From NCBI GenBank assembly GCA_963575745.1, contig CAUYUJ010000072.1:1-64000 (forward strand): a stretch of 64,000 nucleotides of DNA, given 5' to 3'. This stretch comes from Prorocentrum cordatum. Taxonomy: Eukaryota. Both the position numbers and the translations under genes were made by a program. The stretch's first letter is position 1. Each line of letters starts with the position of its first letter. Shown here one piece after another: positions 1-20,298 of the stretch. Under the pieces are notes generated by a model, which searched no databases, was not told the DNA's origin, and worked only from the letters and a program-made list of their open reading frames with translations.

Positions 1-3000
1 CTCATGCCCCACTGGAGGAGCCTGGCCAGACAGAGCAAGGATGGCCGCAGACAGTGGAAACATTTACATGATGCAGACCTGTACCAGCAAGTCATAGACC
101 TGGCGTTGAAGAACAACATCGCTCAGGACCTGTACCTGCTGACGGAGATGCGAGCAGTGCATCAGTGCGTCAGTGCTGAGGCACATAAGATCGAGCAGCA
201 CATTGCCTCGCTGCGAGGCAAAGAATGGAGGGAGCGACTCAAGCAGGGTTCATTCACCGCATCAGCAAGTGGGCGAAGGCGCCGCCCACACCATGCACCA
301 CCACGGCGCAGATGAATGCTGGCATGCGTAACCTCGACCTGGCGGGCCTGCAGACGCGAACGGAGCAGCATGCAGCAGTATGGCATAGAGTGTGGATGTC
401 CCACCATGGGACCAGCCGAGGCGAACCGCCCCGCCCATGGGACAGCTGTGCCTACGATCGCCCGCTGACCCACGTTACCCCCGAGGCCTTCAAGAAAGTC
501 TGCAGGACATTCAGGGCGACAGCGGGAGTAGGAGCGGACCAAATGCATCCCAGATGGTTGGGGGAGCTGTCCGACAAGGGCGCGCAGTTCATGTGCGACC
601 TAGTCATGTACATCAGTCAACACATCCATTGGCCAACCAGCGTGCAGCACATCCTATACTTCCTTCTGGACAAGAACGCTACCGATACTAGGCCAATCGG
701 GCTCATGACCACCACCATGCGGATCACCGAGAGACCGCATGCGGACATTTATATTCAATGGGAAGCAAAGATTTCGCGGGACTACGATTGGGCAGCCAGG
801 GAAGGAGGAGCAGAGAACGCCATGTGGACCCAGGCCCTAGCAGAGGAAGGCCTACCCGACAATTCTGTTTATCTCAGCGCCGCGTCCGACTTGGAGAAGG
901 CTTTCGAGCACATCAGCGCCTACCTCCTGTGGGGCAGAAGCCTCGATCTCGACTTCCCGCGTCAGATGATACACCTGTTTATATTAATGTGCACGGGGCC
1001 CAGATGGATCATGTACCAGAAGATTGTCTCCAAACTCTGCGCTGTCACCTACTCGGCCGTGATTGCGGGCTCCTGTGGTGGCACCAGAGCGCTGAAGATG
1101 GTCACCATCCCAGTATGCGACAAGATCCGGGCCACGTGCACGACAGGTTTTGCACGTGGGCGACCACCAGATGCAGCGAGATGGAGGGCGCCAAGAAGTG
1201 CGCGAGGACATCTACGCTAGCACCCGGTATTACATCAACCAGATCGAGGGCGACCTCGGCGCACCCATCTCGCGCAACCGCGGGGCCAAGCTAGGCAAGA
1301 GCTTCTTCATCGCACCCGGCAAGGAGCTGCGCCACACCTGCAGGGCCGTGGCCAACCACTTCGGCTACCAAGTTAAAGCCACAGGGGAGCAGCTCGGAGT
1401 GGGCACTGCGGGGGGAGCCCCGATATCACGGAGGAAGGCTGGCTCGAGAATCCGCAAGGCCTGGGGCAGGAAGAGGAAGCTGCTCGGCCTGAAGGCCAGC
1501 GGGGCCACCACCAGAGCAGTGGTCAAGAACGGCCTGCTCCCCAGCATGTTCTACGCCTCGGCCGGCTTCGGGGCCCCCGCCACGAGCCTCAACGCGGCCC
1601 GCATCCTCATGCCCAGCGGCCTCGGAGGCGAGCCCATGGGCAAGGACAGCGCCCTCCGGCTCTGGCTTCACTCGGCCGACCCGATTGCGCAGGCCACCCT
1701 CGCCCCGTTGGGCAAGTGGGCCACGGTCATCTGGGACGCAGGGGCCGACTACGCCAAGCTCGAAGCAGGATGGGGTAGGGGAGTTCGTCTGGCAGCAGCT
1801 AGGCAGCCCCCCCCCACCGCAAGTTCGACTGGGCGCAAGCCAGGGGCCCAGCCACGGCGCTCCATGGATCCCTGGACAGGCTTGGATGGACCTGGCCAGC
1901 CCCGCACATCATCCTTACCCACAACCAGGAGCAGCTGACCATGAGGATCGTACCACCCTCCACGATCAAGGCACTCGCGCTAACCAGGCTCGAGCAGGTC
2001 GCCATCGAGAGATGGGCAGACAAGCGTGAGCTACCTTGAGTTTCGCGACCGTTTCTGGAACCAGTACGCGCCCCCCTTCTCCAGAAGGCTCAGCGATACT
2101 GCCCGAGGCGAAGAGGCGCAATCGAGAGCTACCTGTGCGCCGCCTTCTGCACGCAAGATGCACGATGGCGAAGAGGAGAAAAGGACCTACGATATTGCCA
2201 AGTATGCGGCAGTGATATCGGCACCCAGCAGCACAGGTTCTGCAGGCGCAGCGCGCTCGACCAGCAGCGCAGGGATATTGCCGAAGACAATGCTGGAACC
2301 ATTCACAGGGCCACCAGGGCCACGGAGGGAACGCCACTTTTTGCCCGAGGCATTGTAAACCATCCCGTGGCGGATCCCACTTCAGATTTTCAGGTTGGGC
2401 GAATTCAAACCCGAACAGGAGAGCCAGGCCTGCACAGTGGCTTCGCCTTCCCCGACGGGTCGGGAGTCGGGCATCCAGGATGCAAGAGTTTCGGTTGGGA
2501 TTTCTCGTTCGTGAGAGAGTCGCCGTTCGTCGTCAAATTCTCACAAGGTGGATGCCCTGCTGGCGTGCGAGCAACCCTCTCTGTCCTGCGGTGCGAGCTG
2601 TTAGGGGTCGCGCACCTGTTGCAGTACGCCGCTCCCCCGATCACAGTGGGGATTGATAATGGTATTCTGTTTCGGGGCCTCAAGAGAGGCCGAGCCTGGT
2701 GCACCAACGGGGGCTCGCTCGCATGCCGATGTTTGGACTCATAGTTGGAACGTTCTAGATGACATTTTTCCTTGCCTAGCAGGGCTCACCATGGTTAAAA
2801 TGAAGGCTCACCCTGCGCAGCATTTGAATTCGGATGACCCCAGAGTGAGCTTCCTCGCCCGAGGGAACAAAGAGGCGGACGAAGCGGCCCGAGCAGGGGC
2901 CGACCTCGCCCCTCGACCTGTTGGCACTAGCACGACGTATAAGCAGAGATATACGGACGTCAAAGCAGTTTTGAGTTTTGTGGCCGACCTTACAGTTAGG

Positions 3001-4501: not shown

Positions 4502-4858
4502 TATTCCGCCACCTGGTGCTCGTCCTCGGCGTCCGCCCCGCCTCCTCTGCCTGGCCGGCGGCGTGGGGCGGGGGGGGGCCCGGCCGCGGAGGGCCTCCGT
4601 CGCGGGGGACCCCTTCTGGGCCAGCTTGCGGCGTCTGAGTCCTCGGCGTAAGGCAAGCGGATTCTGCATGAAAGCGGAAGGAGAAGGAGGAGGAGGAGGA
4701 GGAGGAGGAGGTTTGAGGGAGGAGGGGGAGGAGGAGGAGGAGGAGGAGGTGCGTTGCTGTTGTGGCTCAGTGTTGGAGGTTGTGAAGGGCCGTAGACGCC
4801 CAAGAACCAGCGATTAGCTTTGGCACGTCCGTCGTCCCTCTCGAGGGGGGCGGGGCTA

Positions 4859-4989
4859 TTAGTTGTTTGACCTAAACGGTTGGACCCCGCCCTCCCCAGT
4901 CGGCTTGGGTTTCTTCTCTCCCTGCTCCTGCCTCTGCTTGCCCTTCCCTTTTCCTCTCTCCCGCTCAAGCCTTCGGGGCTCAAAGCCCT
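4859..4989 (+). repeat. Split direct repeat A1 (131 bp)
   Basis: Matches 20101-20231 with one mismatch (gacct vs gtcct). Confidence 0.97.
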
Positions 4990-5042
4990 GGAGCCGACCT
5001 CAGGAGGTCTGGGCGCCCGCGGCGCCCGGAAGCGTGCGTGCC

Positions 5043-8000
5043 ATGGCTGCCCGGCGCCCGGTGCTGGCAGGCCCGGCGCGCGGGCTGGCCGCGCTGGTCA
5101 CCAGCGCAGCCGCCTACGACTGGCGCGGGCCCCTCAGCTCCGCTGTTGCCCGCGCCAGTTGGGGCCACCCGGCTGCGGCCCAGGAGGCCCCGTTCGGGTA
5201 CACCGTGCCGTACTACGACGACTCCGAGTACGGCATGGAGATCGGCGAGCCCGAGGAGGAGGGTGGGGATGCAGGCAGCCCCCAGGCGCCGCGCGACAGT
5301 GGGCCGCCGGGAGCGCCGCCCCCGCCCCCAGCCCAGGCCGCCGGAGGAGTCGACAACGGCAGCGACCCCACCAAGGACCCGGGCAGCGAGGAGTCTTGGG
5401 TGGGCGGCTGGGGTGTCTGGGCGCTGGGATTGAAGCCACTACGTGCGGGCACCTGGGCCTGGCGCCTGAGTGGCATGGGCGGAGTCGCCTACGAGAAGCT
5501 CGACAGCCTTGGGAGCGCCTTCTCCACCCATGCCGAGACAGGCTGGCTGACCAAGGATGGTGGGTGGTTCTTCTATGCTCTCGAGAAGCTGGGCCTGACG
5601 GTCTTCGGGGCCGCTTGGCCTGCCGTGGCATGGACGTTCATCCTCTTGGCTTTCCTGGCAGTGCTGGCCTTCCTCACTCACATCTGTCGTACCCTACTGG
5701 CCCCATGCGCAGCCGCCCTCTGGCTGATCGGTCTACTGGCGCGGTGCACCAAGTGCCGCCGGCGAGAGCCTGGCGATGCAGCTGCCGAAAGGTACCTGCC
5801 GCCGGCTCCGCCTGCCCTTACCCAGATCAATTGGATGGGGCCAGAGACCGGACCAGCCACGACCACGGAGTACTACAGCAAGAAGGTGAAGGGTCGTGGG
5901 ACTGGGAGGCGGCCTTACGACGTGCTAATCAAGATCGACGACCACGTGGCCCGGCTGAAGATCGACCTTTCGGAGCCCAAGCGGATCGACCGGAAGGGCC
6001 TCTGGATAGACTACCTGGCCGCGAAGGGGGCCAGCTCACGCGCACTCCGTCAGAAACTGGAGTCGCTCGAGGGCCGTTCCATTCACCTGTGCCGCGACCT
6101 GGTTTGCAGAGATCAACCTGGAGAAGTTCATTGTAAAGAGTACGCTGCCTTGGATTCCGAGGCGATCGTGGACATCGGCTCCCACGCCAGGTTCACCTCT
6201 TGCCGGGGCGTCTTCCTGCTCTGGCGGACCGTCGCCGACCTGGGGAGGGCCATCTGGAAAGTGATCGTGTTCCTTTACTGCATCCTCTCCTGCGGTTGCT
6301 CCTTTTGCTGCCGGCGACGCCGCCGTCGCAAGACAGGCGCTGCGGAGCCAGGCGTTGCAGGGAGCATCGCAGAAGTTTTGGATCAGGAGTCAGAGTCGGA
6401 GGTGGAGGCCGAGGACAGGCCATGTGAAGCTGTTCGGGTGGGCATCGTTCTACGCGGCGGCGCTCGCCCCTTGGCACCCGACGGTTGCAGGGGCGCCGCG
6501 GAGGCAGAGCCGACCACCCTGCTCTTCGAAGACGGGCAGGCTTCAGACCTCCCGCCACCCAGCGACGGGCGGAATTCGTTCGCCCATCTCTGCGCACACC
6601 GTGCCCAGGTTTACCGAGCGCCCCGGTACCGTGACAAATGTTCGCAGGTGACTTGCTACCGCCAGGCAGTTGGCAACGCAGAGGGCGTGCCACTATGTCT
6701 TCTTCATCTGGGTGGAGAAGCAGGTCGAGCAGCGCAGGCAGCCGCAGCCGCCCAGGGCCGCGGATTCCTCTCGAGCTCGGGCTTGCGGCGTCGGGCGGTT
6801 CGCAGTCGCAGCCCACGGGCGCGCGAGCAGGGCGCCCCAGTCAACGCAGCTCCCCCCGCAGACGGGGTACGGGGACCGGAGGGCCATCGCGGACAAGCAG
6901 CCCCTGGGCAACACCGACGAGAGGCCTCAGCTTCGCCGCGAGGTCCACCTGTTGGTGTCAGGTTCGAAGCGCCGCCTTCTCCGAGGGTGCCCCTCCCGCG
7001 AGACGCCAGCCCCGCCCCCGACGAGGAGACCGAGCAGGGTGACTCTCTCGTACTGCGCGTGCGAGTCCACTGGGCCGCCGGCCCGCAATGGGTTATCTTC
7101 TTGGGGAAGTCCCGTCCAGGGGGAGGGCCCGCCGGAGATGGCAGCGCGACTGTAGTAGACGTGGAGGAGCCGCACTGCAAAGACTACTCGGCGGAAGGCC
7201 AGGAGAACGTCTGCTTCACCCTCATGACCGCGGGGATCGAGTGCGCCCCCGTCGCCGGCGACCAGGGAAGGCTCCCCGCAGGCTACCTGGAGGAGCTCTT
7301 GTATCACCCACCTATCGGGGCCGAGGAGATGGGGATCGGCGTGCACGGCGTCGTCGTGAGCAGCACCATGTGGGAGAAGCTGCGTCCTTGGAACGGGGTC
7401 CCCGTCGGCGGGAAGACCAAGCGTATCGGCCGCCCTCAGTGGGCTCAGCTTCGGGCCCGCGGGGACTTGCTCGTGCACCGGCATCCCGCGGGCACCTCAG
7501 GTGATGCCCCCGGAGTACCACAGCCCACCTCCGACGAGCTGGACACGCAACTCAAGAAGCATTGGGCGAGGCTTGATCGCAGCAGTTCCCCCAAGCCCCC
7601 ATTCGGCGTCGGGTGGGGCCTGGGCGAGGAGGGTGATCTGGCCTCCTCAGCCCCTCGGCGCACTTCACGCAGCCCGGCGGGGAAGGACCACGAAGAAGAG
7701 AACACCGGGGAGGCCATGCTGGGGCTGTACCTCGCCGCTCATGAAGAAGGATCGGACGACGCCTCGGCGCTGCAGAGCGTGGCGGCAGGATACGACGAGG
7801 ACATCACCGTGGTCTTGGAGCATCTCATCAAGTACACCAAGCGTCTCATGCGCAGCAGCGGGACCGAGGAACGGGCCAAGTACCAGGCGCACATCGACAG
7901 GTGGGAAAGAAAGTTGGAGCGGGTTCGAGCCGAAAAAGATGAAGGGGTGAACCCACCCCTCGCTAGTGGCCTCTTGAAGCTAGACACCGAGCGCAAGCCC

Positions 8001-9740
8001 GATGCCAGCCAAGAGCCCAGCCAACCTGGAGATCCCCCTGGGCAGGGCGCCGCCACGAGCGCTCCGCCATTGCCGCCGCCGGCTACCCCGCCTGGCGTGC
8101 GCGTGCCGGGAGCGACTCGTTTGTCTCCGCCAGGTTTGATGCCCGGCCTCGTACCGAATCTCGGGCAGATGTTCACTAACCGGAGCGCTTATGGCCACGG
8201 AGGACTGGTTGAAACGCCAGGGCAGCCAGATCGTAGGTACGCCGCAGGAGCCGGAGAAGGTGAACCCTCAGCCGCTCTTTTCACCTACGCGCAAGTCCTC
8301 CAGAACGGTCAAGAACAGCAGCACCTAGACAACATGCGGCTGCTGCAGGCGGTGGACAGCCTCCGCAGGTCCGGCGAGGAAGAGAAGGTAGCGCAGCGGG
8401 GCACCCTCGGCGCCATCGGACGTGCCGAGGAGCTGGACGTGTGCCTGGCGCGGGGTTGCGACACCCTCGACGTAGAGGTCTGCGGTACCCTGACCGGGCG
8501 GGAGTTGTTCCATGGCCTCAAGCGCGCCTGCGAGCACGCGAAGCACGTGATGCAGGCGGTGAACTGGCCGACGACGGTGACGAACAGGATGGCGCACGGC
8601 ATCGCCGCCTTCTGTTGGGGGGGGCGGGACCACAAGGATCTGGCCGAGTGGTCGATCTCCGTGGCCGATTTTCCCCATTGCAAAGCAGAGGTGTTCGACG
8701 CCTACACCATGCACACCACGTGCAAGCTCGAGCCGCGCCCCCGGCACCCGGTCGTCTTCTCTCAGTGGGTGAGGCAGGCCGAGAACGCCATCACCGTCTT
8801 CGGGCTAGTCTACGGGCGGATGCACGAGCCCGAGCGACGCCGAGCCCTGGAGACCCTCCGCCTTGCCTACGAGGAGGACGACGTGGCCTTCCCAGCAGAC
8901 TATGTGCACAGCCTTTGGGAGGAGCTTGCTGCAACCTGGTGCGAGCAGCTTCGGGAGAAGCGAAGGGAGGTGTGCCGCATCCTGGGGCTCACCAACCCGC
9001 GCCGGGAGGACATCAAAACCATCGCCCTCGCCCCTACAGGGCCGTCTGGGAGTGCGTGGTTGACCTTTCCGAAGGTATACGACCTCGACGCACCGGACGG
9101 GTACTACCAGGTGGCGTGCGTCCCTCGCCAGGCCCGGCGGCTGCAGAGGTTCCTCCATCAGAACCTCCACGCCGGCCCCTCGAGGACCCCCAAGGCTGGG
9201 AAGGCTGACGAACACACCCCAGCAGATCAGGAGGCGCCCACCGGAGCTGGCCCAGGCACTGGAAAGGCAGGGGCCGCCGTCAAGAAGGCTGCTGCCAAGA
9301 AGCGGCCCGCCGCCCGGGCGCACCCAGCAGGGAAGGCGCTGACGTCCAGCGAGATCGGGCGCTCAGTCAAGCACGCCCCCCGGGACAAGAACGGGAAGGT
9401 CATCTGCTGGGACGCCTGCACATGGGCTGGCTGCCCCAAGGCGGCAGGGGCTGGCTGCCCCAAGGCGGCAGGGACTTGCGCCCACTCCCATGAGGCCATC
9501 AAGGGGCTTGGCAGCCTGGACTGGACCGTGCAGGCGCAGCTCATCAGGCGCGGCGGCCTGAAGTCTGGCGCTAAGGTCGACCCCGCCTCGGTCGACGGGC
9601 GGGTAGCTCAGCTCAGGGCCCAGGCCAAGGCCGAAGCAGACAGCAAAAGGGCTGGGGGAGGCGCCGGAGAAGGTCCCGGGGCCCCTGCGGGGGGCAGCCG
9701 AGCGGGAGGCGGCTGTTTGGTCCCCCCCAGCTGCCTTTGA
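5043..9740 (+). CDS. Element segment 1: hydrophobic/membrane-like N-terminus, Cys/His clusters, Gag-like region, CCCH zinc finger
   Basis: First ATG at 5043 in the 1625-aa ORF 4863-9740. Hydrophobic stretches at ~5565-5756 and ~6210-6310. ICWDACTWAGC...CAHSH at ~9402-9492. First ORF of a DIRS-order element, the usual gag position. Confidence 0.8.
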   Translation: MAARRPVLAGPARGLAALVTSAAAYDWRGPLSSAVARASWGHPAAAQEAPFGYTVPYYDDSEYGMEIGEPEEEGGDAGSPQAPRDSGPPGAPPPPPAQAAGGVDNGSDPTKDPGSEESWVGGWGVWALGLKPLRAGTWAWRLSGMGGVAYEKLDSLGSAFSTHAETGWLTKDGGWFFYALEKLGLTVFGAAWPAVAWTFILLAFLAVLAFLTHICRTLLAPCAAALWLIGLLARCTKCRRREPGDAAAERYLPPAPPALTQINWMGPETGPATTTEYYSKKVKGRGTGRRPYDVLIKIDDHVARLKIDLSEPKRIDRKGLWIDYLAAKGASSRALRQKLESLEGRSIHLCRDLVCRDQPGEVHCKEYAALDSEAIVDIGSHARFTSCRGVFLLWRTVADLGRAIWKVIVFLYCILSCGCSFCCRRRRRRKTGAAEPGVAGSIAEVLDQESESEVEAEDRPCEAVRVGIVLRGGARPLAPDGCRGAAEAEPTTLLFEDGQASDLPPPSDGRNSFAHLCAHRAQVYRAPRYRDKCSQVTCYRQAVGNAEGVPLCLLHLGGEAGRAAQAAAAAQGRGFLSSSGLRRRAVRSRSPRAREQGAPVNAAPPADGVRGPEGHRGQAAPGQHRREASASPRGPPVGVRFEAPPSPRVPLPRDASPAPDEETEQGDSLVLRVRVHWAAGPQWVIFLGKSRPGGGPAGDGSATVVDVEEPHCKDYSAEGQENVCFTLMTAGIECAPVAGDQGRLPAGYLEELLYHPPIGAEEMGIGVHGVVVSSTMWEKLRPWNGVPVGGKTKRIGRPQWAQLRARGDLLVHRHPAGTSGDAPGVPQPTSDELDTQLKKHWARLDRSSSPKPPFGVGWGLGEEGDLASSAPRRTSRSPAGKDHEEENTGEAMLGLYLAAHEEGSDDASALQSVAAGYDEDITVVLEHLIKYTKRLMRSSGTEERAKYQAHIDRWERKLERVRAEKDEGVNPPLASGLLKLDTERKPDASQEPSQPGDPPGQGAATSAPPLPPPATPPGVRVPGATRLSPPGLMPGLVPNLGQMFTNRSAYGHGGLVETPGQPDRRYAAGAGEGEPSAALFTYAQVLQNGQEQQHLDNMRLLQAVDSLRRSGEEEKVAQRGTLGAIGRAEELDVCLARGCDTLDVEVCGTLTGRELFHGLKRACEHAKHVMQAVNWPTTVTNRMAHGIAAFCWGGRDHKDLAEWSISVADFPHCKAEVFDAYTMHTTCKLEPRPRHPVVFSQWVRQAENAITVFGLVYGRMHEPERRRALETLRLAYEEDDVAFPADYVHSLWEELAATWCEQLREKRREVCRILGLTNPRREDIKTIALAPTGPSGSAWLTFPKVYDLDAPDGYYQVACVPRQARRLQRFLHQNLHAGPSRTPKAGKADEHTPADQEAPTGAGPGTGKAGAAVKKAAAKKRPAARAHPAGKALTSSEIGRSVKHAPRDKNGKVICWDACTWAGCPKAAGAGCPKAAGTCAHSHEAIKGLGSLDWTVQAQLIRRGGLKSGAKVDPASVDGRVAQLRAQAKAEADSKRAGGGAGEGPGAPAGGSRAGGGCLVPPSCL

Positions 9741-12348
9741 CGAGATTCAGACCACCGCCCTCGAGGAGGAGCTCAGGCAGGCCGTCCAGGGCCCCGAGGA
9801 GGACTGGTTGCTGGACGCCCACGCCAACGCGCCCGCGGTGGAGGGGACCAGTGAGACGACTCATCCCGCCGCTCTCGAAAGATGGAACATCATTGAGAAG
9901 ATCTTGGAGAGCGGGGCCCTCGCGACGCTGGGCGACATCAGCGACTACCTGCATTCACACGCCCTGGCCAGGCTCGCACGCGCCAGCTCAGAGGGCATCT
10001 CCCTGAGCTTGGAGGAAGTACTGCTGGAGGCGACTCGGGACGGGGGGCCAACCCTCGCCGAGGAAGCCGGTCGGGCCCTCGACAGGCTGGGATCAAAGGC
10101 GGGGAGGAGCAGCACTCAGGACCTCAGCATTGGAGGAGCCTCCTGGGACGAGGAGGCTGGAGTTGGCCGCGGGAAGCTCACGGTGCAAGACCAAGACTGG
10201 GACTATCTCGACTTCCAGGACGAGCTTCAGCCCGACGAAGAGATGAGAACCCGGCTCGGCCTCAAGGAAGGCGACGCAGAGCTCAGGCAGTGTCTGGTGC
10301 TCCACATCGCGGCCGCCCTGCTCTGGGGGGATAAGGAGCCTGATGCGCCGGCCGTGAAGGCCCTGGCTGCTCAGCTCCGCCGCGAGTTGTGGGATGGAGC
10401 CACCACCGCCACCGCCGCATTGGGGGGCGCACCTCCCTTCGTCTCACCACGTGAAGCCGAGCTCCGGATGCGCTGCCATGATGTCCAGCACCCGCACCAC
10501 GACAAGGACTTCAGGTGCATCTCGGTCTTCCCCCTGAGTGCCCTCAACACGACCACCGTCCGGGTCTGGAGGATCAACCACTGGAACCAGCTCGAGATCG
10601 ATTCCGTCCTGCCGACGCAGACCAGCGAGAGGGAAGTCCACGTCATGATCCATCGAGGGCATATGCGGGTGCTCAGGCCACCGGTCATCAGCGGCCAGAG
10701 TCCCAACAAGCGAGGCCGGGCATTTGGGGAGATCCTCAAGACCTGGACGCTAGCTGGGAAACCCGTCCGCGAGCTACTCACAGTCGGCTGGGAGATGTAC
10801 CTGGAGTCAGAGGAGGTCGCGGGGCCCGTGATCCCGAGCCGGCCCCCGCCCTGCATGCACTGCAAACGTATGCAGCAGGCTCAGCTCCCAACGCGTGAGG
10901 GCGCCGTCGGGAACCAGGAGCTCGAGGAGGAGGACTTCTCCGGTCTCGCACCACTCCTGCGCAGACCCGCCTTCGCGTGGGGCATCCGCACTCGCGAGAT
11001 CTTCGCAGGGACAGGGAACTGGACCAAGGCGATGCGAGAAGCTGGACTCCAGACGGCTCCGTCCGTCGAGTATTTCCAGGACCCCCTGGCCCAGACCGGG
11101 CCCCAGGAGGAGCACGACGTCCTCGATCCCCAAGTGCGAGAGAGGCTCCTCCTCGACGCTGGGGCAGCGCCAGGCCCCGACGAGGCGAACGTCTACCAGA
11201 TGGCCCCCCCGTGCGCGACCCACTCAGCCTGGTGCCTCAAGAACGGCGGGACCCGCACGTTTGAGCATCCGGACGGCGACGGGACGGTCCAGGCGGAGAT
11301 CGACAGCAACATCATGACCGATTTCGCCGCCGACCTCTGCGAGCGCCTCGACGCCAACGATCGAGAGTGGATGCTCGAGAACACGGCCAGCGACGGACGC
11401 TACCCGAAGATCTGGGACAGGGCCAGGATCAGGCAGCTGCAGAAGCGCACAGGAGCACGGATTATCTCCGTCGCCATGTGCGAGTGGGGGCTAGGGCCCC
11501 CAGAGGAGCCTGCGAAACGGCACCGCAAGCTGACGTTCTGGATGGTCTCGAAGGGCCTCTACCCCTGGGCGCTCTCTCTGGCGAGGCGCTGCACCAACCA
11601 GCACGAACGCGTCGCCCTGGAAGGGCCTCTCCCCTACGACCTGACCCAGGCCCAGATCGACCACTACAACTCCTCCAAGCTCTCCCTCAGCCAGCCCGAG
11701 CAGAAGGACATCCTGAGCCTGACCAATCGTTTAGCCCTGGCAGGCGCGCAGGCTCAGGGTCTCGCCGCAGATACCAAGACCCTGGAAACCCCACAGCTCG
11801 GACCCGAGCTGCTGCGCCCGCTGAACGACCTCGTCGGCAAGCTGGGGCCCGTGAACTTCCACTGGAGCCGGGTCGAACCACGCACCGGGAAGGCCTTCGA
11901 GGACCTCCCGGAGGGCGCCGTGGCCTTGTACTACGGACGTGATCGAGCCGACAATTTCGTGGCCAAGATCTCACACCAGTCGCACCCGTGCCTGCACGGT
12001 GGCGGGCGCATCCCCAGCGGAGCTCCCCCACTGGCCAAGGCACTGCGGGAGGAGTTGAGCACCCTCGGCTTCCAGGTCGGTCAGCGTGGACTACGTCGCA
12101 CCCGCTACGCCGGCCAGTACCCGACGAGGCCGTGCGCTGCCTGGGCCGAGGTCGTCAAGGCTGCGGGAGCGGGGACCCCCCCCGCGAAGCTCCTGAAGAA
12201 GCTTGAGCCCATCGTCACGACGAGGGCCGGAGACAAGATGGCGGCGGGAGCCGGTGACGGGGTTCACCTGGCGGAACCCCCCCCCTCCTTTTCGCTTCCA
12301 GGACGTGCCAGTCACGGAGAAGGAGGCGGAGGAGGACCATCCAGCTGA
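9718..12348 (+). CDS. Element segment 2: putative cysteine protease domain followed by a C5 cytosine methyltransferase-like domain
   Basis: Frame is open upstream of the listed start (WSPPAAFDEIQTTALEEEL from 9718). RQCLVLH at ~10285 and IHRGHM at ~10648. EIFAGTG (motif I, ~11000), MAPPC (motif IV, 11200-11214) and LEN (motif VI, ~11374). Confidence 0.75.
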   Translation, partial: WSPPAAFDEIQTTALEEELRQAVQGPEEDWLLDAHANAPAVEGTSETTHPAALERWNIIEKILESGALATLGDISDYLHSHALARLARASSEGISLSLEEVLLEATRDGGPTLAEEAGRALDRLGSKAGRSSTQDLSIGGASWDEEAGVGRGKLTVQDQDWDYLDFQDELQPDEEMRTRLGLKEGDAELRQCLVLHIAAALLWGDKEPDAPAVKALAAQLRRELWDGATTATAALGGAPPFVSPREAELRMRCHDVQHPHHDKDFRCISVFPLSALNTTTVRVWRINHWNQLEIDSVLPTQTSEREVHVMIHRGHMRVLRPPVISGQSPNKRGRAFGEILKTWTLAGKPVRELLTVGWEMYLESEEVAGPVIPSRPPPCMHCKRMQQAQLPTREGAVGNQELEEEDFSGLAPLLRRPAFAWGIRTREIFAGTGNWTKAMREAGLQTAPSVEYFQDPLAQTGPQEEHDVLDPQVRERLLLDAGAAPGPDEANVYQMAPPCATHSAWCLKNGGTRTFEHPDGDGTVQAEIDSNIMTDFAADLCERLDANDREWMLENTASDGRYPKIWDRARIRQLQKRTGARIISVAMCEWGLGPPEEPAKRHRKLTFWMVSKGLYPWALSLARRCTNQHERVALEGPLPYDLTQAQIDHYNSSKLSLSQPEQKDILSLTNRLALAGAQAQGLAADTKTLETPQLGPELLRPLNDLVGKLGPVNFHWSRVEPRTGKAFEDLPEGAVALYYGRDRADNFVAKISHQSHPCLHGGGRIPSGAPPLAKALREELSTLGFQVGQRGLRRTRYAGQYPTRPCAAWAEVVKAAGAGTPPAKLLKKLEPIVTTRAGDKMAAGAGDGVHLAEPPPSFSLPGRASHGEGGGGGPSS

Positions 12349-15300
12349 GCTCAGAGGATGGCAATGCGCGAACAGAGGCAAGAAGAGAGGAGGGTGGAAA
12401 CGCAACAAGGCGAGAAAGAGGGATCCCGACCGAGGAGCGCCACCACCGGGCCCTGGAGGAGATGGCGGAGACGACGAACCTGGGGGAGACGAAGGAGAAG
12501 GAGAGGAGGAAGAGGAAGAGAAGGAGCCGCCCAGGAGGGTCAAGAAGTCCAGGCAAGCCGAGCAGCAAGCCGATGAGCCAGTCAAGGTGATTCTTCCACA
12601 GCGGGGGGACCGATGGATACCAATCCCGGGGGCCCCCATGTACGCGCACGAGCTCCAGAGCGTCCTCATGACCTGCAGATGGCTGCGCGACGACGTCCTC
12701 AGCCCCGAGGAGCTTCGCCTGTTCGTCTACACCGACGAGGGGGACGCCGCAGGAGCCGAGGGACCTCCCTTAGAAGACGACGATCGTGTCGAGCCCGGGG
12801 AACGCCTTATCCTGTGGATCGGGAAAGAGGACATCGGGAATTGGGCAGCCTGGGCGCCGCGCTGGATCAAGAGGGCCGCGGACGAGGAGCGTGAGGGGGC
12901 GCCGTGGCACCGCAGCGAGGCCACCCCCGCGTCCCACCGCAGCGTCACGCTGAGGATCGCCGACCGCGTCAGCTCCCAGGGCTTTGGCAGCCCAGAGCTT
13001 GGCGCTGTCTGGAACAGGCGGGCCCCTCCGCCGCGCTCAGGAGGGAGGCGTTTCCAGCAGGCTGCCGCCCAAGCCCTCCAGAGACAAAGCCGCGAGGCGC
13101 CCGCTGGAGGGTCCAGCAGCGGAGGCAGCTCAGCCGACAGCATCAAGCTGGAGAGCATAAGGAGGAAGCTCGAAGCCGCCAAGGCCGCCGAGGTAGGTGT
13201 CCTGGAGGAGGAGGAGAAGCGCATCAAGGAGCTGCAGATACAGCTGGCAGAAGCTAAGGAGCGCCGCCGGGCCCGTCGTGCGAGGGATGCCGGCAAGCGC
13301 GAGGCAGAGCAAGCGCAAGCCGGGCATCCCCGCCGGGCCAGCTCAGAACCCCCCAGCGGGCAGGGCGCGGCCACCCCTCTCGATCCAGCCTGGGAGGACG
13401 AGACCCCGTTGCCCTCGGCCATCCTGGATGGGGAGAACAAGTGCCACGAAGCGGAGTGCATCTTGAATAACCTGCCCGGAGTTCCAGCTGACGATCCCAC
13501 GGGACCTGATCGGAGGAGGAAAGCGCGGGAGCTCCTGATCGAGGGCATCAGCTCCATGTTCGAGGACCTACCGCGGAGCTGGACCGGCACCCCCTACGAG
13601 GAGCAAGGCGAGATCGCGAGCGAGTACGTTGACATCCTCGAGAAGCTGACCCGCAAGATGGTGAAAGCAGGGGAGCTGGACGACACCCCCGCAAAGAAGC
13701 GCCAGAGAATCGTGCACGAGAAGGCGGAGGAGGAACCCACGAGCGACGACGCGGACTCCGACGAGAGCTCGGAAGACGAGGTGGTGGAGAAGCCGTACGC
13801 GAGGACCGAGGAGGGAATAGACCCCCCCCTCCCAGAGGATCCAGATCCCCTGAGCCTCTGGCCCGGGCAAGCGGAGGCGGCCAGGCGGAGCAGGGAGGAG
13901 ACTTTCCAGAGCTCTCCTGGGGCCAGCGGCAGCGGAGGCCCCGCCCCCGCCGCAGGTGCAGAGCCACCGCCGAGTGCACCTCCACCGCCCGAGGTACTGG
14001 AAACCCCCTCAGACCCAGCCCAGTATCGGAAGAGCAGACTCCCCGCCACGATCCCCCAGAAGGCCGCGCCAACGAGGAGAAGCCGCTCGGCCATGACAGT
14101 CGTGGAAGCAGCCAGGCGTGCCGCAGGCAGGTCGACGACCTCCAGCGGAGACCCCCCTACTGGGGGAGCCGACGCCGGCAGCGCAGGGACGTCCGGAGAG
14201 AAGCTCGCACTCAGGCCCAAGCCGAGATCACTGGGTGCCCAGCTGCGCGCCACCTCCAAGGGAGAGCCATCGCAGCCCAGACCCCGCCAAGATGATCCAG
14301 CCAGGCCGCTCGTGCCCCCAGATCACGCAGTCAGGCCCCTGGTGAGGCCCCCAGGGTGGCGCCCGCTTCTCCCTGGGCAACTCGCCCGGCCGCCGGGGAT
14401 GCCGCCGATGATGCCGCCCCCTTGGCCGTCCCCTCCGCGGGGGGGCCGCTGTGGGGGACCCCCTTTGGGGGAGGCGCCGGCGGCGCCGAGCGGTGGGGGG
14501 GCGCAGGAGGAGGCGCGTGACTACGTTAAGTGGTGCGCGGACCACCCCACCTTCCAGCCCGAGAAGGTGCCAGAGGTCGTGAAGCGGGGCAACTCACTCC
14601 TCCGCCTCGCCGGCAGCGTCGAGAGGGCTGCCGAGTTGCTGAAGCACGCGCGGGAGGAGGTCCATGGGAACCCACTGGGCGGCGTACTCCAAGAAGACGT
14701 GCAGAAGTCCTTGGACCCGCACCACGCCGCCTACCTCCGGGCCATGGCCACCGGGGGGGTACCCGTGCGACGCACGGAGGAGCGGACGCGCACGCAGGCC
14801 AAGTCGCACTCCTCGGCGGTGGACCACGCGCTGGAGATGTTCGAGAAGGCCTGGAAGGACAGCCGCTACGGCGTTGTCCTCTGGGCCTCGGACGAGGTCG
14901 AGGGCGTGCTCGCCGCCTCGGCGCTGGTCGAGTCGCCCAGCGGGAGGGTCCCCGAGATGTTGCCGGATCGGACCATCTCGAAAGAGGGCCGGCCGATCCA
15001 CGACATGCGGGCGGCCAACGCCTTCTCTCCGAAGGAGCAGCACCCGCCAGCGAAGCAGCCCCTCCACAGGGGGCTTGCGAGGCTCAGCCTCTGGTGGGGG
15101 GCGAGGCACCCGGGCGTCCAGCAGGTGGTGGCGAAGCGCGACGTGGCCAGGGCCTTCAAGTGGCACCACCTGGAGCCAGCTGCCGTGCCAGAGTTCGGGA
15201 CGACGCTCTCGGGCAGGGAGGTCGGGGTGCCAGGGCGAGTTATCCTGATCCACGGCGTGCTGGTCTTCGGCTGGGCCGGCAGCCCGGGCGAGTACATGGC

Positions 15301-17764
15301 GTTCGCCTGGGCGGCCAAGAGCGAGCACGAGAGGAGGAAGCCGCCGGCGCCCAGGATCAACGATGCCGTCAGGTACGCCTCCAAGTGGCTCATGGACGAC
15401 GGGGTCGTCCTCGAGCCGCTGGTGGGCCTCCGACCCTGGCTCTCGGCCGAGGAGCTCGACGGGGCCATGAAGCGAGTCTGGGGCCCGGACGCAGTTAACG
15501 AGGAGAAACTGGACGTCGAGGGGGAGTTCGCGGCAGAGCAGTTGATCTGGGGACTCCACATGAACTTCGACACGAAGGTGGTCAGGCTCCCAGAACCCAA
15601 ATGCATCAAGGCTCAGTACCTGCTCGCCCTCCCGGATCTCAGAGGATCCAGGCGGGTCCCGCTGAAGGTCGCCCAAGAGCTGCGAGGCTGTGCCCAGTTC
15701 TGGGCGTCAGCACAGCCAGCGCTGCGCCCCGAGCTCCCCGCCCTGGACCGACTCCTCAGCAGCGGGACGAGCTGGGCAGAACCGAAGGGTACGCCTGAGG
15801 AAGTCGAGCTCGCCTGGGAGGAGTGGGGCGCGTCAGTGGGGTTTCTGAGGATGCTCTTCGACGTCCCGGAGGCCTGGAGCACGACCTCCCAAGCCAGCTT
15901 CACGCAGGCCCTGTCGGTGCGCGAACGCCTCGCCTTGCCAGGGACAGCGCGTACCACACGGTGGACGGGCGGAGATGCTACCACCTCCTCGATCGGTGCC
16001 ATCGACTGGGGGAGCGCAACTGCAGGGGATGCCGCGCCGACGCCGGAGTACATGGCCACGGACGCCGGACCATTGCTCGAGGCCCTGAGTCACGCGGTCA
16101 CAGGCGAGAGTGGCGAGGAAGGCTGGATCATAGCGGTGGTCGAGCTGCTGGCGGTGGTCGCGTTGGCCACGAAGCAGGGCTCGAAGTGGGAAGGCGAGTT
16201 GGTATTTTACGTCACGGACAACCAGAATGTGAAGGCCTGGCTCACCAAGAGAAGCCCCAAGAACGCCCTGGCCCGCCACCTGATACGTCTGGTGGGAAGG
16301 ATCGAAGCCATGCACGGATGCCGCATCGTCTCGTTCTTCGTGAGGACCTACCATAATGAAGTGGCCGACTGGCTTACCCGCGAAGAGGTCAAGCAGGTTC
16401 ACGACACGCTGGCCACCTCAGGGTGGACGCGCCTAGAGCCTCCCGCAGCCTGGGGCCAGATACTGGAGGACGCCAAGGAGCGCCTTCTCAGGCTCCCTGG
16501 AGAGACGGGCCCCGTGGCCGAGGCTGCCCTTCGACACCGAGCACTTCAGCGAGGACATGGACTGCCGAGAGCTCTCCCGCTCCGCGGGAAGCTGGGTCGA
16601 GAAGTGGGGAGTCTCATCAACCCGTACACGAAGGCCTTCGAGCGCCTCGGGGGACCGGAGCCCGAGGAGAACCAGAAGGTGGGATGGCTCATGGCGTCGC
16701 TGCCCCTAGACCCCAAGGGCCGAGAGATGGAGGCTTTCTTCGTCGCAGCAACTCAGGAGAGCCCTGAAGTGGCGGTCGTGGACGCCCCGACCGGGGTAGA
16801 CACAGCCAGGTTCGAGAAGGCACTCAAGCAGCTGGGCTACATGGTCTCGAAGTTCGAGGTGGTCTGCACGCACCACGGGGACGCCGCGACGCGGACCAGG
16901 CGGGTGCTCGTGGGCGGACGTCGGAAAGCGGGGGTGGGCCTGGCGTGCATTAACATGCCGCCGGCCTGCTCCCGAGCTGCCAGCGTCAAGCCTCTCCTGG
17001 AGAAGGGGAAGGACCACCTGTGGCTCGACCAACAAGGCGAAGTGTCATGGGACCCCCGCATCCAGTCCACCAGCGACCCCCTCCTCCTCAAGCCGGTCGG
17101 GCACCTCAAGAAGGATGGAGCGAAGCGCCTGATCTACAGCGAGGAGGGGCCGGTGGGCACAATCCGCTGGCCTGGGGCGGAGCTCCAAGGACCCGGGGCG
17201 ACGCTCCTCCGTGTCACCGGAGGGGGCGGAGGCACGGTCCGCGCCCTGACGCCCCAAGAGGTTTGGCGAGTGCAGGGAGGGACCAACGACGAGTGGACCC
17301 ACTTGCGAGCCCAGGGCTTCACCGAGGACGAACTCCTGAAGGGCGCCGCCAGGGCGCTCCCGCCGAGGACCGCGGAGGCAGTGCTGACCGCGGCGACAGA
17401 GGCGCTCGACAGCACCAGCACGCAGCGGGCCGGGGTGTGCCATGATCCAGAGGAGCAAGCTGCGTGGGAGGCCACCAAGCGCTGGTTCCGCGCCTGGGCC
17501 CAGGCACCGGATCAGCCCGCCTTGGCACTGGCAGCAGAGGGCGAGGTGAGGGCCGGAGGAGCGCTCACCGACGAGATGCACAAGAACCGCCGGCGCGCCC
17601 AGGCAGTCCGCTTCAAGATGATCGACGAGGACACGCTCATCGGACCCCGCGAGGCCCCAGCCGCCGAGAAGGTTAAGCTGGATAAAAGTGTGACACGCTC
17701 GAAAAGTCCTCGCAAAAAAAAAGCCCTCGGCGTGCCAAAGAGATGCCAGCAACCGACCTGGTGA
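12203..17764 (+). CDS. Element segment 3: low-complexity/coiled-coil linker, reverse transcriptase, RNase H, degenerate C5-MTase-like domain
   Basis: RT: KRDVARAF (Asp at 15140), LVFGWAGSP (~15260), WLMDDG (~15386). DIRS-type RNase H: GDAT, VELLA, VTDN, NEVADWLTR (15970-16380). MTase C-terminal motifs: HGDAATRTRRVLVG and VRALTPQEVWRVQG. Confidence 0.9.
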   Translation: MSPSSRRGPETRWRREPVTGFTWRNPPPPFRFQDVPVTEKEAEEDHPAELRGWQCANRGKKRGGWKRNKARKRDPDRGAPPPGPGGDGGDDEPGGDEGEGEEEEEEKEPPRRVKKSRQAEQQADEPVKVILPQRGDRWIPIPGAPMYAHELQSVLMTCRWLRDDVLSPEELRLFVYTDEGDAAGAEGPPLEDDDRVEPGERLILWIGKEDIGNWAAWAPRWIKRAADEEREGAPWHRSEATPASHRSVTLRIADRVSSQGFGSPELGAVWNRRAPPPRSGGRRFQQAAAQALQRQSREAPAGGSSSGGSSADSIKLESIRRKLEAAKAAEVGVLEEEEKRIKELQIQLAEAKERRRARRARDAGKREAEQAQAGHPRRASSEPPSGQGAATPLDPAWEDETPLPSAILDGENKCHEAECILNNLPGVPADDPTGPDRRRKARELLIEGISSMFEDLPRSWTGTPYEEQGEIASEYVDILEKLTRKMVKAGELDDTPAKKRQRIVHEKAEEEPTSDDADSDESSEDEVVEKPYARTEEGIDPPLPEDPDPLSLWPGQAEAARRSREETFQSSPGASGSGGPAPAAGAEPPPSAPPPPEVLETPSDPAQYRKSRLPATIPQKAAPTRRSRSAMTVVEAARRAAGRSTTSSGDPPTGGADAGSAGTSGEKLALRPKPRSLGAQLRATSKGEPSQPRPRQDDPARPLVPPDHAVRPLVRPPGWRPLLPGQLARPPGMPPMMPPPWPSPPRGGRCGGPPLGEAPAAPSGGGAQEEARDYVKWCADHPTFQPEKVPEVVKRGNSLLRLAGSVERAAELLKHAREEVHGNPLGGVLQEDVQKSLDPHHAAYLRAMATGGVPVRRTEERTRTQAKSHSSAVDHALEMFEKAWKDSRYGVVLWASDEVEGVLAASALVESPSGRVPEMLPDRTISKEGRPIHDMRAANAFSPKEQHPPAKQPLHRGLARLSLWWGARHPGVQQVVAKRDVARAFKWHHLEPAAVPEFGTTLSGREVGVPGRVILIHGVLVFGWAGSPGEYMAFAWAAKSEHERRKPPAPRINDAVRYASKWLMDDGVVLEPLVGLRPWLSAEELDGAMKRVWGPDAVNEEKLDVEGEFAAEQLIWGLHMNFDTKVVRLPEPKCIKAQYLLALPDLRGSRRVPLKVAQELRGCAQFWASAQPALRPELPALDRLLSSGTSWAEPKGTPEEVELAWEEWGASVGFLRMLFDVPEAWSTTSQASFTQALSVRERLALPGTARTTRWTGGDATTSSIGAIDWGSATAGDAAPTPEYMATDAGPLLEALSHAVTGESGEEGWIIAVVELLAVVALATKQGSKWEGELVFYVTDNQNVKAWLTKRSPKNALARHLIRLVGRIEAMHGCRIVSFFVRTYHNEVADWLTREEVKQVHDTLATSGWTRLEPPAAWGQILEDAKERLLRLPGETGPVAEAALRHRALQRGHGLPRALPLRGKLGREVGSLINPYTKAFERLGGPEPEENQKVGWLMASLPLDPKGREMEAFFVAATQESPEVAVVDAPTGVDTARFEKALKQLGYMVSKFEVVCTHHGDAATRTRRVLVGGRRKAGVGLACINMPPACSRAASVKPLLEKGKDHLWLDQQGEVSWDPRIQSTSDPLLLKPVGHLKKDGAKRLIYSEEGPVGTIRWPGAELQGPGATLLRVTGGGGGTVRALTPQEVWRVQGGTNDEWTHLRAQGFTEDELLKGAARALPPRTAEAVLTAATEALDSTSTQRAGVCHDPEEQAAWEATKRWFRAWAQAPDQPALALAAEGEVRAGGALTDEMHKNRRRAQAVRFKMIDEDTLIGPREAPAAEKVKLDKSVTRSKSPRKKKALGVPKRCQQPTW

Positions 17765-17881
17765 GGCCGCAAGCGCTGGGCGTAGCTCGGAAGACCAACT
17801 ACCCCGGAAAAGGAGCTCGCCCCCGCCGGCCGCGCTGAGCCTGGCGGAGCCAACTACGCCGGCTGGTTCGCGCAGCAGAAG

Positions 17882-18976
17882 ATGGAGGCCATGCTGCAGA
17901 AACTCAGTGAAGGCACAAGGGCAGGTTACGAGGGAGGATGGCGGCTCTGGGTTGCCGCGCGCCAGGCGCAGGGGCTCAGCCCTTGGCTCCCAGGACGTGA
18001 TCGCGAGGAGCGCCTGGCCGATGAGGAGGCGCCCATCAACTTCGCCGTCCTCTTAGCGCGGGTCGTCGCGAGGACCGAGGGGACCATCAAGCAGAAGCTC
18101 TTCGCGGTGCGCTACGCCCACCTGGTGGCTGGCTACTCGGACCCCCTGCTCCACAGAGGCCGCCTCTGGAGCACGCTGGCAGGGCTGAAACGCTGGCAGG
18201 GGCCCGAGACCAAGCGGAAGAAGCCCGTCACGCCAGCCATGCTCGAATGGCTCCGCGGCTTTCTCCAGCAGGAGGCCAAGCTCCCCGAGGAGGATGCCGT
18301 GGTCATCTGGGCGGCCATCGTGACAGCGTTTTTCTTCCTCCTGAGGGCCTCAGAGTACCTCCTCCAGGACGGGCGCTCGTGGTCCTTCGAGCGCGTGCTG
18401 CACGGGGAGGACGTGGAGCCCAAGAAGGAGGGGAGGCGCGTGGCCAGCTTCCAGGACGCCGACGAGATGGTGATCTACATCAAGGGCAGCAAGACGGACC
18501 AGCTCAACGTCGGGACGGTGAGGAACCACTACCGCGCCGGCACATCGCTCTGCCCGATCGCGGCGATGGAGCGGCTCCAGGCTCACCATCCTCAGCGGAT
18601 AAAGGGCACCGAGGAACGGCTGCCCCTCTTCCGCTGGGCGTCAGGTACACCGATCCGCAGGGCAGAGGTGCAGCACTTCCTGACGGTCGCGGGGCTGGCC
18701 GCCGGCCTCTCCAGGGAAGAGATCGGTAGCCACTCCCTGAGGATCGGCGGGGCAACTGCAATGTACCACGTGACCGAGGACCTCTCCCGAGTGCGCCGAT
18801 TCGGGCGCTGGCAGTCGGACGCGTTCCACGGCTACCTGTGGGAGTCGCACGAGCCGATGAAGGGCATCTCCGGCAAGATGGCCAGGGACAACTCCTCGTT
18901 GACCAACCCGGCGAAGGACAGCGCCTCCAGCAGAGCTGCCGCCGGCGCCGAGAGCGCCAGGCGTGAGAGCCCATGA
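17882..18976 (+). CDS. Tyrosine recombinase (phage-integrase family) of the retrotransposon
   Basis: Full catalytic set R-K-H-R-W-Y: FFLLRASEY (R 18344), GSKTDQ, SHSLRIGGAT (18728-18757), FGRWQS, HGYL (Y 18833). Confidence 0.95.
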   Translation: MEAMLQKLSEGTRAGYEGGWRLWVAARQAQGLSPWLPGRDREERLADEEAPINFAVLLARVVARTEGTIKQKLFAVRYAHLVAGYSDPLLHRGRLWSTLAGLKRWQGPETKRKKPVTPAMLEWLRGFLQQEAKLPEEDAVVIWAAIVTAFFFLLRASEYLLQDGRSWSFERVLHGEDVEPKKEGRRVASFQDADEMVIYIKGSKTDQLNVGTVRNHYRAGTSLCPIAAMERLQAHHPQRIKGTEERLPLFRWASGTPIRRAEVQHFLTVAGLAAGLSREEIGSHSLRIGGATAMYHVTEDLSRVRRFGRWQSDAFHGYLWESHEPMKGISGKMARDNSSLTNPAKDSASSRAAAGAESARRESP

Positions 18977-19872
18977 GAGGCCGCAGCGGGCGCCGCCGGT
19001 GCTTACGCACCTGGCGTGCGCCCGACCCAAGCCGCCGGCTTCGCGCCGTGCGTGCTTGGGTGCAGCCACCAGCCACCTGCCCCGCCGGCGAGTAGCCGCG
19101 CGCTCGCAGGGTACACCCGCCCGTGCCTTCAGCACTGGCTAATACCTCACGGCAAAAGCATGCGTGCAGGTCCGTCCGTCAGGGCCCCACTAGTGCCTGG
19201 GATACTGTGGGTCCCCTTGCAGCCCTGGACGAGGACCACGCTGGAACCCGCCTGGCACGCCGGCTCTCCATGCCAAGCCTGGGCGTGCCGGGCATACTGA
19301 CGCCAGCTGTGCTACAGTAGCTGGCAGTCTGACGGCCCGGGTGGCCGCAGCGCTCGAATTCATGCGCAGGCGCGGGCCCGCGCCCCAGCGCCGGCCCGGG
19401 GAACCCCCTCTGTCAGGGGCCGGACCCTGCCCGCCCCGTGCACTTTGGGCACCTGCGGAGGCGGGGAGCCGGGAGATCTGGAGGCCGCGGCGCAGACGGG
19501 GACGCCAAGTGCCGGCCCGCGCCAAGCGCCAGCGACGACACCCTCGGGCCTCAGCCCGAGGTCGGGCTCCGCCGGCAATCCAGGTACCGGCGCGAGCCCA
19601 AGGCCTAGCCTCACGGAGGACAGCCGCGCGCGCCGGCATCAGTTGCCTGGCGGCAGTCGGCAGACAGGGGGCCAGTCGGGCCCCCACACGCACGCCGGCG
19701 CGCACGCCGGGCGATGCGTGACTCAGTGCCTAGACGGTGCCGGCAACACAACGCCTGGCACCCAGTTTTGGCGACGCCCATCAGGGCGCCCACACAGCAC
19801 GCCGGCGCGTAGCACCCGCCAGGCGGCCAGTGTGCGGGGGCACTGGCAGCAGCACCAGTATTATAGAACAAA

Positions 19873-20100
19873 GGCGGCGAGGCCCGCTTCGCGTGGCGGA
19901 AGGAGGGACCCGCCTGGCGTGTCATCGCCGGCGGGAGGAGCGCGCGGCCAGCGCAGCAGCAAAATGGGGGGGGCTGCACCGCTGCCGCCATCATCGTCAT
20001 CGTCTCCTGAGGGCCCGCTTCAACCGCTTCGCGGCTGGCACGTCCCGCGGCCTTAAAGCAGGCCGCGCTTTCGCTAGCGCCGTACTGTGGGGGCGGGGTC
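19873..20100 (+). repeat. Split direct repeat B1 (228 bp)
   Basis: Matches 20299-20526 with two C/T differences; abuts A2 directly. Confidence 0.97.
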
Positions 20101-20231
20101 TTAGTTGTTTGTCCTAAACGGTTGGACCCCGCCCTCCCCAGTCGGCTTGGGTTTCTTCTCTCCCTGCTCCTGCCTCTGCTTGCCCTTCCCTTTTCCTCTC
20201 TCCCGCTCAAGCCTTCGGGGCTCAAAGCCCT
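20101..20231 (+). repeat. Split direct repeat A2
   Basis: Copy of 4859-4989. Confidence 0.97.
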
Positions 20232-20298
20232 CCCAGGGCCCAAAGGGGCCCTCTTTTGCCCGCCCACCCTGGGCTTTGCCTCGGTGTCCTACGGCACC

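Follow-up and report, generated by a model that had tools for sequence, protein, structure and literature searches.

An OTU-fold domain with a conserved Cys-His pair, a putative processing peptidase, between Gag and Pol of a DIRS-like retroelement

How the Gag and Pol products of tyrosine-recombinase retrotransposons are separated is the question raised by a stretch of 64,000 nucleotides from Prorocentrum cordatum (assembly GCA_963575745.1, contig CAUYUJ010000072.1, positions 1 to 64,000), the whole of which was analysed and is called the window below, and which contains a DIRS/PAT-like retroelement of about 15.7 kb. No enzyme has so far been proposed for this step, and tyrosine-recombinase retroelements are described in the relevant passages of PMC3783388 and PMC3950715 as being without an aspartic protease. 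An original prediction, made from the letters of the window, had placed a candidate papain/OTU-like cysteine protease in this element, that is, in a class thought to lack proteases; the two papers bear out the latter statement for the aspartic type. In the following, residues are numbered from the start of the domain in question, whose parts are:

10105..10870, forward strand: putative OTU-fold cysteine peptidase domain (model, fold searches, 596 relatives)
10210..10212, forward strand: D36, a conserved acidic residue upstream of the Cys (77/81) that ends strand 30-36; candidate third catalytic residue
10279..10293, forward strand: Cys loop E59-x-R61-Q62-C63, with C63 (10291-10293) as putative nucleophile (conservation and model)
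10477..10515, forward strand: highly conserved cluster of the helical lobe, H125-D126 ... H132-D-K-D135-x-R137 (conservation)
10657..10662, forward strand: G185-H186, with H186 (10660-10662) as putative general base (conservation and model)
9730..10104, forward strand: conserved linker and helical bundle ahead of the OTU core

The segment 10105-10870 is a stop-free translation of 255 residues, which includes ELRQCLVLHIAAAL and HVMIHRGHMRVL and occurs as a single copy within the window. Cys63 is encoded by TGT (10291-10293) and His186 by CAT (10660-10662), 123 residues apart. The original prediction had given the coordinates and both motifs exactly, with a spacing of about 120 residues. A first search retrieved the relatives P0002 and P0003, and a profile of three sequences was then run against 1.84 billion representatives, yielding 596 proteins up to an E value of 1e-3, of which 318 stay at or below 1e-10 and 40 at or below 1e-30. 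For the conservation analysis 81 near-full-length domains were aligned, chosen from 150 listed relatives together with the query (P0001), P0002 and P0003. Within this alignment 78 of the 81 domains retain C63 and 79 retain H186, and their neighbours E59 (79/81), Q62 (77/81) and G185 (69/81) are conserved as well, so that the QC and GH motifs on which the prediction was built persist across homologues. The acidic D36 is kept in 77 of the 81 domains, and the helical cluster is conserved to a similar or higher degree (H125 78/81, D126 81/81, H132 79/81, D135 79/81, R137 78/81). As the aligned sequences are representatives of clusters formed at 50% identity, the observed conservation indicates strong constraint.

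The fold was modelled with AlphaFold2 for the window domain (model 1), using an alignment of 41 sequences, and for the 459-residue relative P0006 (model 2), whose domain is 34% identical. Model 1 reached a mean predicted local distance difference test score (pLDDT) of 93.7 and a predicted template modelling score (pTM) of 0.91, model 2 a pLDDT of 88.6. In model 1, Cys63 opens helix 63-73 and His186 opens strand 186-191, directly past the hairpin 176-183; in model 2, Cys297 opens helix 297-310 and His428 opens strand 428-433. The helix-initial Cys of the anticipated layout is thus seen in both models, in each of which the His opens a strand that comes after a hairpin. Among the matches listed in a Foldseek comparison of model 1 with the PDB, all were OTU/otubain proteases, the top one being the Taggert virus OTU (E 3.5e-3, probability 0.99; none <= 1e-3). 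VIA-align, a second fold search that is independent of Foldseek and was run against 48,161 representative chains, filled rows 1-32 for model 1 with OTU-type proteins, three of which (VCPIP1, 3von and Ceg23) we take to be OTU-type irrespective of their row titles; in the lower rows nairovirus OTUs stand at 7-8 and the turnip yellow mosaic virus (TYMV) proteinase at 4.8. The fold search with model 2 returned OTU proteins in rows 1-29, and matches in BFVD comprised nairovirus L proteins, giant-virus OTU proteins and chrysovirus OTU proteases. Model 1 hence resembles OTU cysteine proteases, and no other fold, non-protease folds included, appeared at a comparable score, which supports the OTU-type assignment of the original prediction at the level of the two models.

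The position of the putative catalytic residues can be compared with that in TYMV PRO, which, according to the passages on this enzyme in PMC3968130, works with a Cys-His dyad only (Cys783 and His869) and without a third catalytic residue. In the alignment of model 1 with TYMV PRO (46..191 versus 772..874) His186 and His869 both lie 5 residues before the end, and in that of model 2 (278..434 versus 773..875) His428 and His869 both lie 6 residues before the end. Matching offsets are obtained for OTUB1 and OTUD1 if their catalytic His residues are, as we assume, His265 and His431. We consider it highly probable that this element, a member of a class described as protease-free, carries an OTU-fold domain whose Cys-His pair is intact and conserved; the designation of this domain as a putative protease draws on the modelled fold and the conserved residues.

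The element around the domain was delimited by a repeat search of the window, which found split direct repeats in the order A-coding-B-A-B flanking a block of four open reading frames (ORFs). Its features are listed below; L001 is a metagenome contig whose domain is 57% identical to that of the window, and RT stands for reverse transcriptase.

4847..20526, forward strand: whole DIRS/PAT-like tyrosine-recombinase retroelement, about 15.7 kb (split repeats; colinear with the ORF of L001)
4847..4989, forward strand: terminal repeat A1, 143 nucleotides, 97% identity to A2
4863..9740, forward strand: ORF1, Gag-like, 1625 residues, with a C-terminal CCCH zinc finger and helix (homology to P0002, P0003 and L001 in their N-terminal portions)
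9808..12348, forward strand: ORF2, contains the OTU-fold domain (open reading frame)
12203..17764, forward strand: ORF3, Pol, 1853 residues, with RT-like motifs (open reading frame and motifs)
15134-15166, forward strand: RT-like motif KRDVARAFKWH of Pol
15266-15295, forward strand: RT-like motif FGWAGSPGEY of Pol
15386-15406, forward strand: RT-like motif WLMDDGV of Pol
17882..18976, forward strand: ORF4, tyrosine recombinase, 364 residues (Pfam Phage_integrase and motifs)
19873..20100, forward strand: repeat B1, 228 nucleotides, 99% identity to B2
20089..20231, forward strand: repeat A2, partner of A1
20299..20526, forward strand: repeat B2, partner of B1

ORF4 matches Pfam Phage_integrase at E 1.1e-4 with 22.5 bits, which is under the gathering cut-off of 27.1, and carries the motifs LLRASE, HSLRIGGAT and RWQSDAFHGYL of the R...HxxR...Y type; the same Pfam match is present in L001 and P0068. 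ORF1 has no Pfam family match. ORF3 shows motifs of RT type (D..AF, FG..SP, LMDD) and no match in Pfam or PDB sequence searches, a 10-sequence profile included; in the part of PMC5890265 concerned with it, the RT of the Symbiodinium DIRS elements is likewise described as aligning poorly with the Pfam seeds. All organism-named members of the 24 Pol homologues are dinoflagellate, and the genera represented among the named relatives, both for the domain and for Pol, are Durusdinium, Polarella, Symbiodinium and Amphidinium. The A-coding-B-A-B layout is that described in PMC5890265 for SymbioDIRS-Dnmt3. Taken together, the repeat order, the recombinase in ORF4 and the dinoflagellate-named relatives assign the element to the DIRS/PAT-like retroelements of dinoflagellate type.

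Whether the domain is part of a polyprotein is best seen in L001, where positions 247-14091 form one stop-free ORF of 4,615 codons or more, which is open at its 3' end and runs from Gag through the recombinase, with Phage_integrase as the sole Pfam match of its product. Related loci sought on viral contigs showed no usable pattern. This ORF aligns colinearly with the four ORFs of the window, which lie in frames 3, 1, 2 and 2, and in P0002 and P0003 Gag, the domain and the next part share one frame. The order in the intact polyprotein is Gag, CCCH finger, linker, OTU domain, methyltransferase-like part, putative RT/ribonuclease H (Pol) and recombinase. The L001 frame, which spans the whole element, recombinase included, is unusually long for a retroelement reading frame. 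The polyprotein of L001, at least 4,615 residues, contains no D[TS]G motif, and neither do ORF2, ORF3 and ORF4 of the window; a single DSG in ORF1 lies in the low-complexity N-terminus and is not conserved. The absence of a DTG/DSG aspartic motif, which had been noted for the domain, thus holds there and extends across ORF2 to ORF4.

The copy in the window departs from the single frame at three places. The change from ORF1 to ORF2 occurs at a homopolymer, namely:

9722..9729, forward strand: C7 run at which the frame changes from ORF1 to ORF2 (absent in the relatives P0002, P0003 and L001)

The second frame change lies between 12203 and 12348, and the third break is the in-frame stop 17762-17764. 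Contigs of four other public runs differ from the window at the breaks, being shorter by one letter at 12277, by two at 17714 and by one at 17809, and one contig of run X4 that covers 9300-9926 has a net 19 letters fewer; as a matter of arithmetic, which is not proof, these length differences would bring the parts back into one frame. Programmed frameshifting was considered for the three junctions between the ORFs and rejected, since the relatives and the other copies read straight through and the junctions are thus unlike programmed frameshift sites. The window copy has either been damaged recently or been mis-assembled at homopolymers. The terminal repeats of this frame-broken copy are still 97-99% identical.

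An ORF of at least 4,615 residues that combines Gag, an RT-like part and the recombinase, and whose only protease-like part is the OTU-fold domain, implies a need for processing. On the basis of the models and the conserved residues, we prefer, with a probability of about 0.5, the reading that the OTU-fold domain is an active cysteine peptidase whose most likely function is to process the polyprotein and which may deubiquitinate in addition. In the mechanism proposed here, the nucleophile would be Cys63, at the N-terminus of its helix, and the general base would be His186, which opens the adjacent strand, and the domain would be the element's own processing protease, cutting in cis or in trans. 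The cuts would fall at basic motifs containing Gly that stand between Gag and the OTU domain, either at RRGG or at (R/K)(A/V/Q)G, where a flexible linker begins, and in the clade of the window a further cut would be made at KRGG ahead of Pol. Such a role would be equivalent to that of the OTU-type proteases in tymovirus and arterivirus polyproteins, with deubiquitination as an additional possibility. The zinc finger and the candidate sites are located as follows (a slash marks the candidate cut):

9405..9491, forward strand: CCCH zinc finger, C-x8-C-x4-5-C-x3-H in relatives (22-sequence alignment)
9546..9557, forward strand: RRGG motif in LIRRGG/LKSG, candidate cleavage site (recurrence in relatives)
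9645..9710, forward strand: KRAG (9645-9656) and SRAGG (9696-9710) of the (R/K)(A/V/Q)G type, second candidate cleavage region (recurrence in relatives)
12380..12394, forward strand: KKRGG/W at the Pol start, candidate cleavage site restricted to one clade (window, L001 and P0169)

In the alignment of 22 sequences, C20, C29, C44 and H48 of the finger are invariant. According to the original prediction the domain followed the Gag zinc finger closely; an upstream finger is indeed present, but it lies about 265 residues before the Cys and, in the window copy, in another frame. The finger of the window contains a tandem duplication of 9 residues (GCPKAAGA twice, 9420-9470), which alters the Cys spacing and is found in none of the other 21 aligned relatives. 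Past the finger comes a helix ending in (L/I)(R/K)RGG(L)(K/R). At the RRGG position [RK]GG is present in 24 of the 33 relatives with 200 or more residues upstream, and in a set of 153 proteins 29 of 36 occurrences of [RK]RGG fall 101-200 residues ahead of the domain. The RRGG motif resembles the C-terminus of ubiquitin. Furthermore, [RK][AVQ]G follows 20-70 residues after RRGG in nearly all proteins that combine the finger with RRGG (35/36, versus about 17% expected from background frequency), and its counterpart KQG in the P0006 model belongs to the sole segment with a pLDDT below 50 (98-101), at the start of a flexible linker (96-149). A Gly-Gly site just after the domain was also considered as a candidate and rejected, since it occurs in some distant members only.

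Several of our results weigh against a processing peptidase. The most conserved residues, H125, D126, H132, D135 and R137, are unexplained by an OTU mechanism, and no Asp or Asn comes after His186, where the sequence reads H-M-R and leaves the usual place of a third residue vacant; acidic candidates for orienting the His are D36 (77/81), E59 (79/81) and D126 (81/81). With respect to sequence similarity, Pfam returned no family at E <= 1 for the domain and nothing relevant at E <= 10 for 41 family members, and a PDB search with the domain profile gave four chance-level matches, none of them an OTU or another protease. The domain also went unrecognised in Pfam searches of long relatives, in searches of the ESM Atlas and in a word-based search of proteins of 140-447 residues. 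A precomputed Pfam label, PF26692.1, is attached to relatives that bear Gag and the OTU domain (P0002, P0003, P0121, P0175 and others) and not to Pol-only ones; this entry, which is absent from the Pfam version used and for which a literature search gave no paper, may already cover the OTU-fold domain. As to the candidate sites, the P0006 model places RRGG, with a pLDDT of about 94, in a confidently predicted loop that links helices 52-60 and 72-95, unlike a free tail, and KRGG/W was rejected as a general site because it is confined to the window, L001 and P0169, the closest clade. In the clade of the window there is moreover no conserved Gly-Gly site at the C-terminal edge of the domain. The window copy, being frame-broken, may yield no full polyprotein. 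Finally, the nairovirus OTU sits in an L protein without processing it, as stated in the passage on this enzyme in PMC3968130.

The structured loop around RRGG and the nairovirus precedent would fit a domain that acts only as a deubiquitinase or as a protease for ubiquitin-like proteins, stripping host ubiquitin from proteins of the element or of the host, which would for example allow escape from proteasomal restriction, with the polyprotein being cut by host proteases or remaining uncut. The best-scoring structural neighbours are all deubiquitinases, and the OTU domains of Ginger1 and Helitron are, in the text of PMC2836005 that deals with them, not tied to polyprotein processing. Nevertheless, we regard such a restriction to deubiquitination, the main rival reading, as rather unlikely, given that a single ORF of this length without another protease-like part needs processing, that conserved Gly-containing basic motifs stand at the edge of the flexible linker adjoining the domain, and that both roles coexist in arterivirus PLP2 and TYMV PRO as these are portrayed in the sections of PMC3968130 devoted to them.

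Alternatively, the OTU fold may serve a non-hydrolytic use, either as a binding scaffold or with an active site made up of the H125-D126/H132-D-K-D135-R137 cluster, which could be a metal site. The conservation of this cluster beyond that of the Cys and the His (D126 in 81/81), the lack of sequence similarity to OTU families and the absence of a third catalytic residue from its usual place would all be accommodated. Pseudo-enzymes usually lose their catalytic residues, however, whereas here the Cys (78/81) and the His (79/81) are kept and stand on the secondary-structure elements of an OTU protease in two models, so that we consider a non-hydrolytic domain improbable. A further explanation would be a chance Cys...His pattern in a non-functional or decayed stretch, for which the three frame disruptions of the window copy could be cited; no RNA source was listed for the copy, which counts neither for nor against this. 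Two such residues about 120 positions apart would carry no meaning on their own, and it is the conservation and the fold that set them apart from chance: 596 relatives, near-invariant motifs, a pLDDT of 93.7 and the fact that 21 of the 40 best-supported base differences between copies are synonymous already contradict this explanation.

Several known systems can be compared with the putative processing peptidase. Cellular OTU deubiquitinases (OTUD3, OTUD2, OTUD1, A20/Cezanne/TRABID, yeast Otu1/Otu2 and OTUB1) are 7-16% identical to the domain. Their usual motifs are D-G-x-C and H-aromatic-D/N, whereas the domain has E-x-(R/K)-Q-C as its Cys loop and M-R after the His; it differs from them furthermore by the extra invariant HD/HxDKDxR cluster and by its location in a retroelement polyprotein. 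Tymovirus PRO and arterivirus PLP2, like the domain, present an OTU fold within a replicative polyprotein (relevant parts of PMC3968130 and PMC3744425). Equine arteritis virus PLP2 and TYMV PRO are described in PMC3968130, in the sections at hand, as OTU-fold enzymes that mature polyproteins in cis and in trans and also deubiquitinate, and the His of the domain matches the position of His869 of TYMV PRO by alignment offset. An OTU cysteine protease domain on a mobile element is shared with the DNA transposons Ginger1 and Helitron; there, in the account excerpted from PMC2836005, it is recognised as pfam02338 at the C-terminus of the transposase, whereas the domain described here is invisible to Pfam and lies between Gag and Pol. 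With the aspartic protease of retroviruses and of retrotransposons of the long terminal repeat (LTR) type, the domain has in common its place after Gag and ahead of RT as well as its presumed task, polyprotein cleavage, but neither the fold nor the catalytic type.

Among the closest known systems is also SymbioDIRS-Dnmt3 of Symbiodinium, which has in common with the element of the window the A-coding-B-A-B layout, a divergent RT-like part missed by Pfam, a tyrosine recombinase, a cytosine-methyltransferase-like part and a dinoflagellate host (main text of PMC5890265); in that main text the words 'protease' and 'OTU' are absent. Searches of open-access full text for an OTU protease or a cysteine protease of DIRS, Ngaro and further tyrosine-recombinase retroelements brought up no report. 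We put forward, at slightly less than even odds, the broader hypothesis that dinoflagellate DIRS-like elements recruited a highly divergent OTU-fold protease, which would process a polyprotein exceeding 4,600 residues at sites resembling ubiquitin tails and would deubiquitinate as well, in convergence with the OTU proteases of RNA viruses. It would be the first cysteine processing protease in a reverse-transcribing element that is known to us, the literature searched being that on tyrosine-recombinase elements.

The occurrence of a giant polyprotein and an OTU-fold peptidase domain in one family makes the protease question of this class directly testable. Beyond cellular deubiquitinases, RNA-virus proteases and DNA transposons, the OTU fold gains a retroelement as a new setting, in a form that sequence methods miss, and a putative, so far unannotated enzyme is added to the methyltransferase-bearing elements that are abundant in dinoflagellate genomes. 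If the domain were a deubiquitinase only, the interest would be more modest, and if a newer Pfam release already covers it under PF26692, the descriptive novelty is smaller while the functional question stays.

Downstream of the domain, relatives share a conserved C-x3-5-RC pair followed by cytosine-methyltransferase-like E[VL][FY]AG ... PC. In the window the corresponding feature is:

10996..11223, forward strand: methyltransferase-like motifs EIFAGTGNW (motif-I-like) and PPC (motif-IV-like) after the OTU domain (motifs only)

They belong to a first methyltransferase-like stretch at 10996-11415, and a second one is found at the C-terminus of Pol (16895-17281), with TRRVLVGG and RALTPQEVWRVQGG. 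The methyltransferase-like part at the C-terminus of ORF2 has no Pfam or PDB sequence match, and neither of the two stretches was recognised by these searches. Judged by their motifs, the two stretches may be halves or copies of a cytosine methyltransferase akin to the one in SymbioDIRS-Dnmt3. The long relatives P0075, P0104, P0177 and P0179 contain a Tpt1/KptA RNA 2'-phosphotransferase domain (PF01885), which in some members replaces the methyltransferase-like motifs or is added to them; we know of no description of Tpt1/KptA as an accessory domain in retroelements.

Just downstream of the element lie 90-nucleotide tandem-repeat arrays at 21235-22666 (13.4 copies) and 27317-28068 (about 5.7 copies). 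At long trinucleotide arrays of TAC (24742-26542) and ACT (29094-29910) the G+C content falls to 0.43-0.53. On the other side of the element, about 550 nucleotides upstream of A1, an inverted repeat of 69 nucleotides with 81% complementarity and a loop of 33 nucleotides occupies positions 4128-4298.

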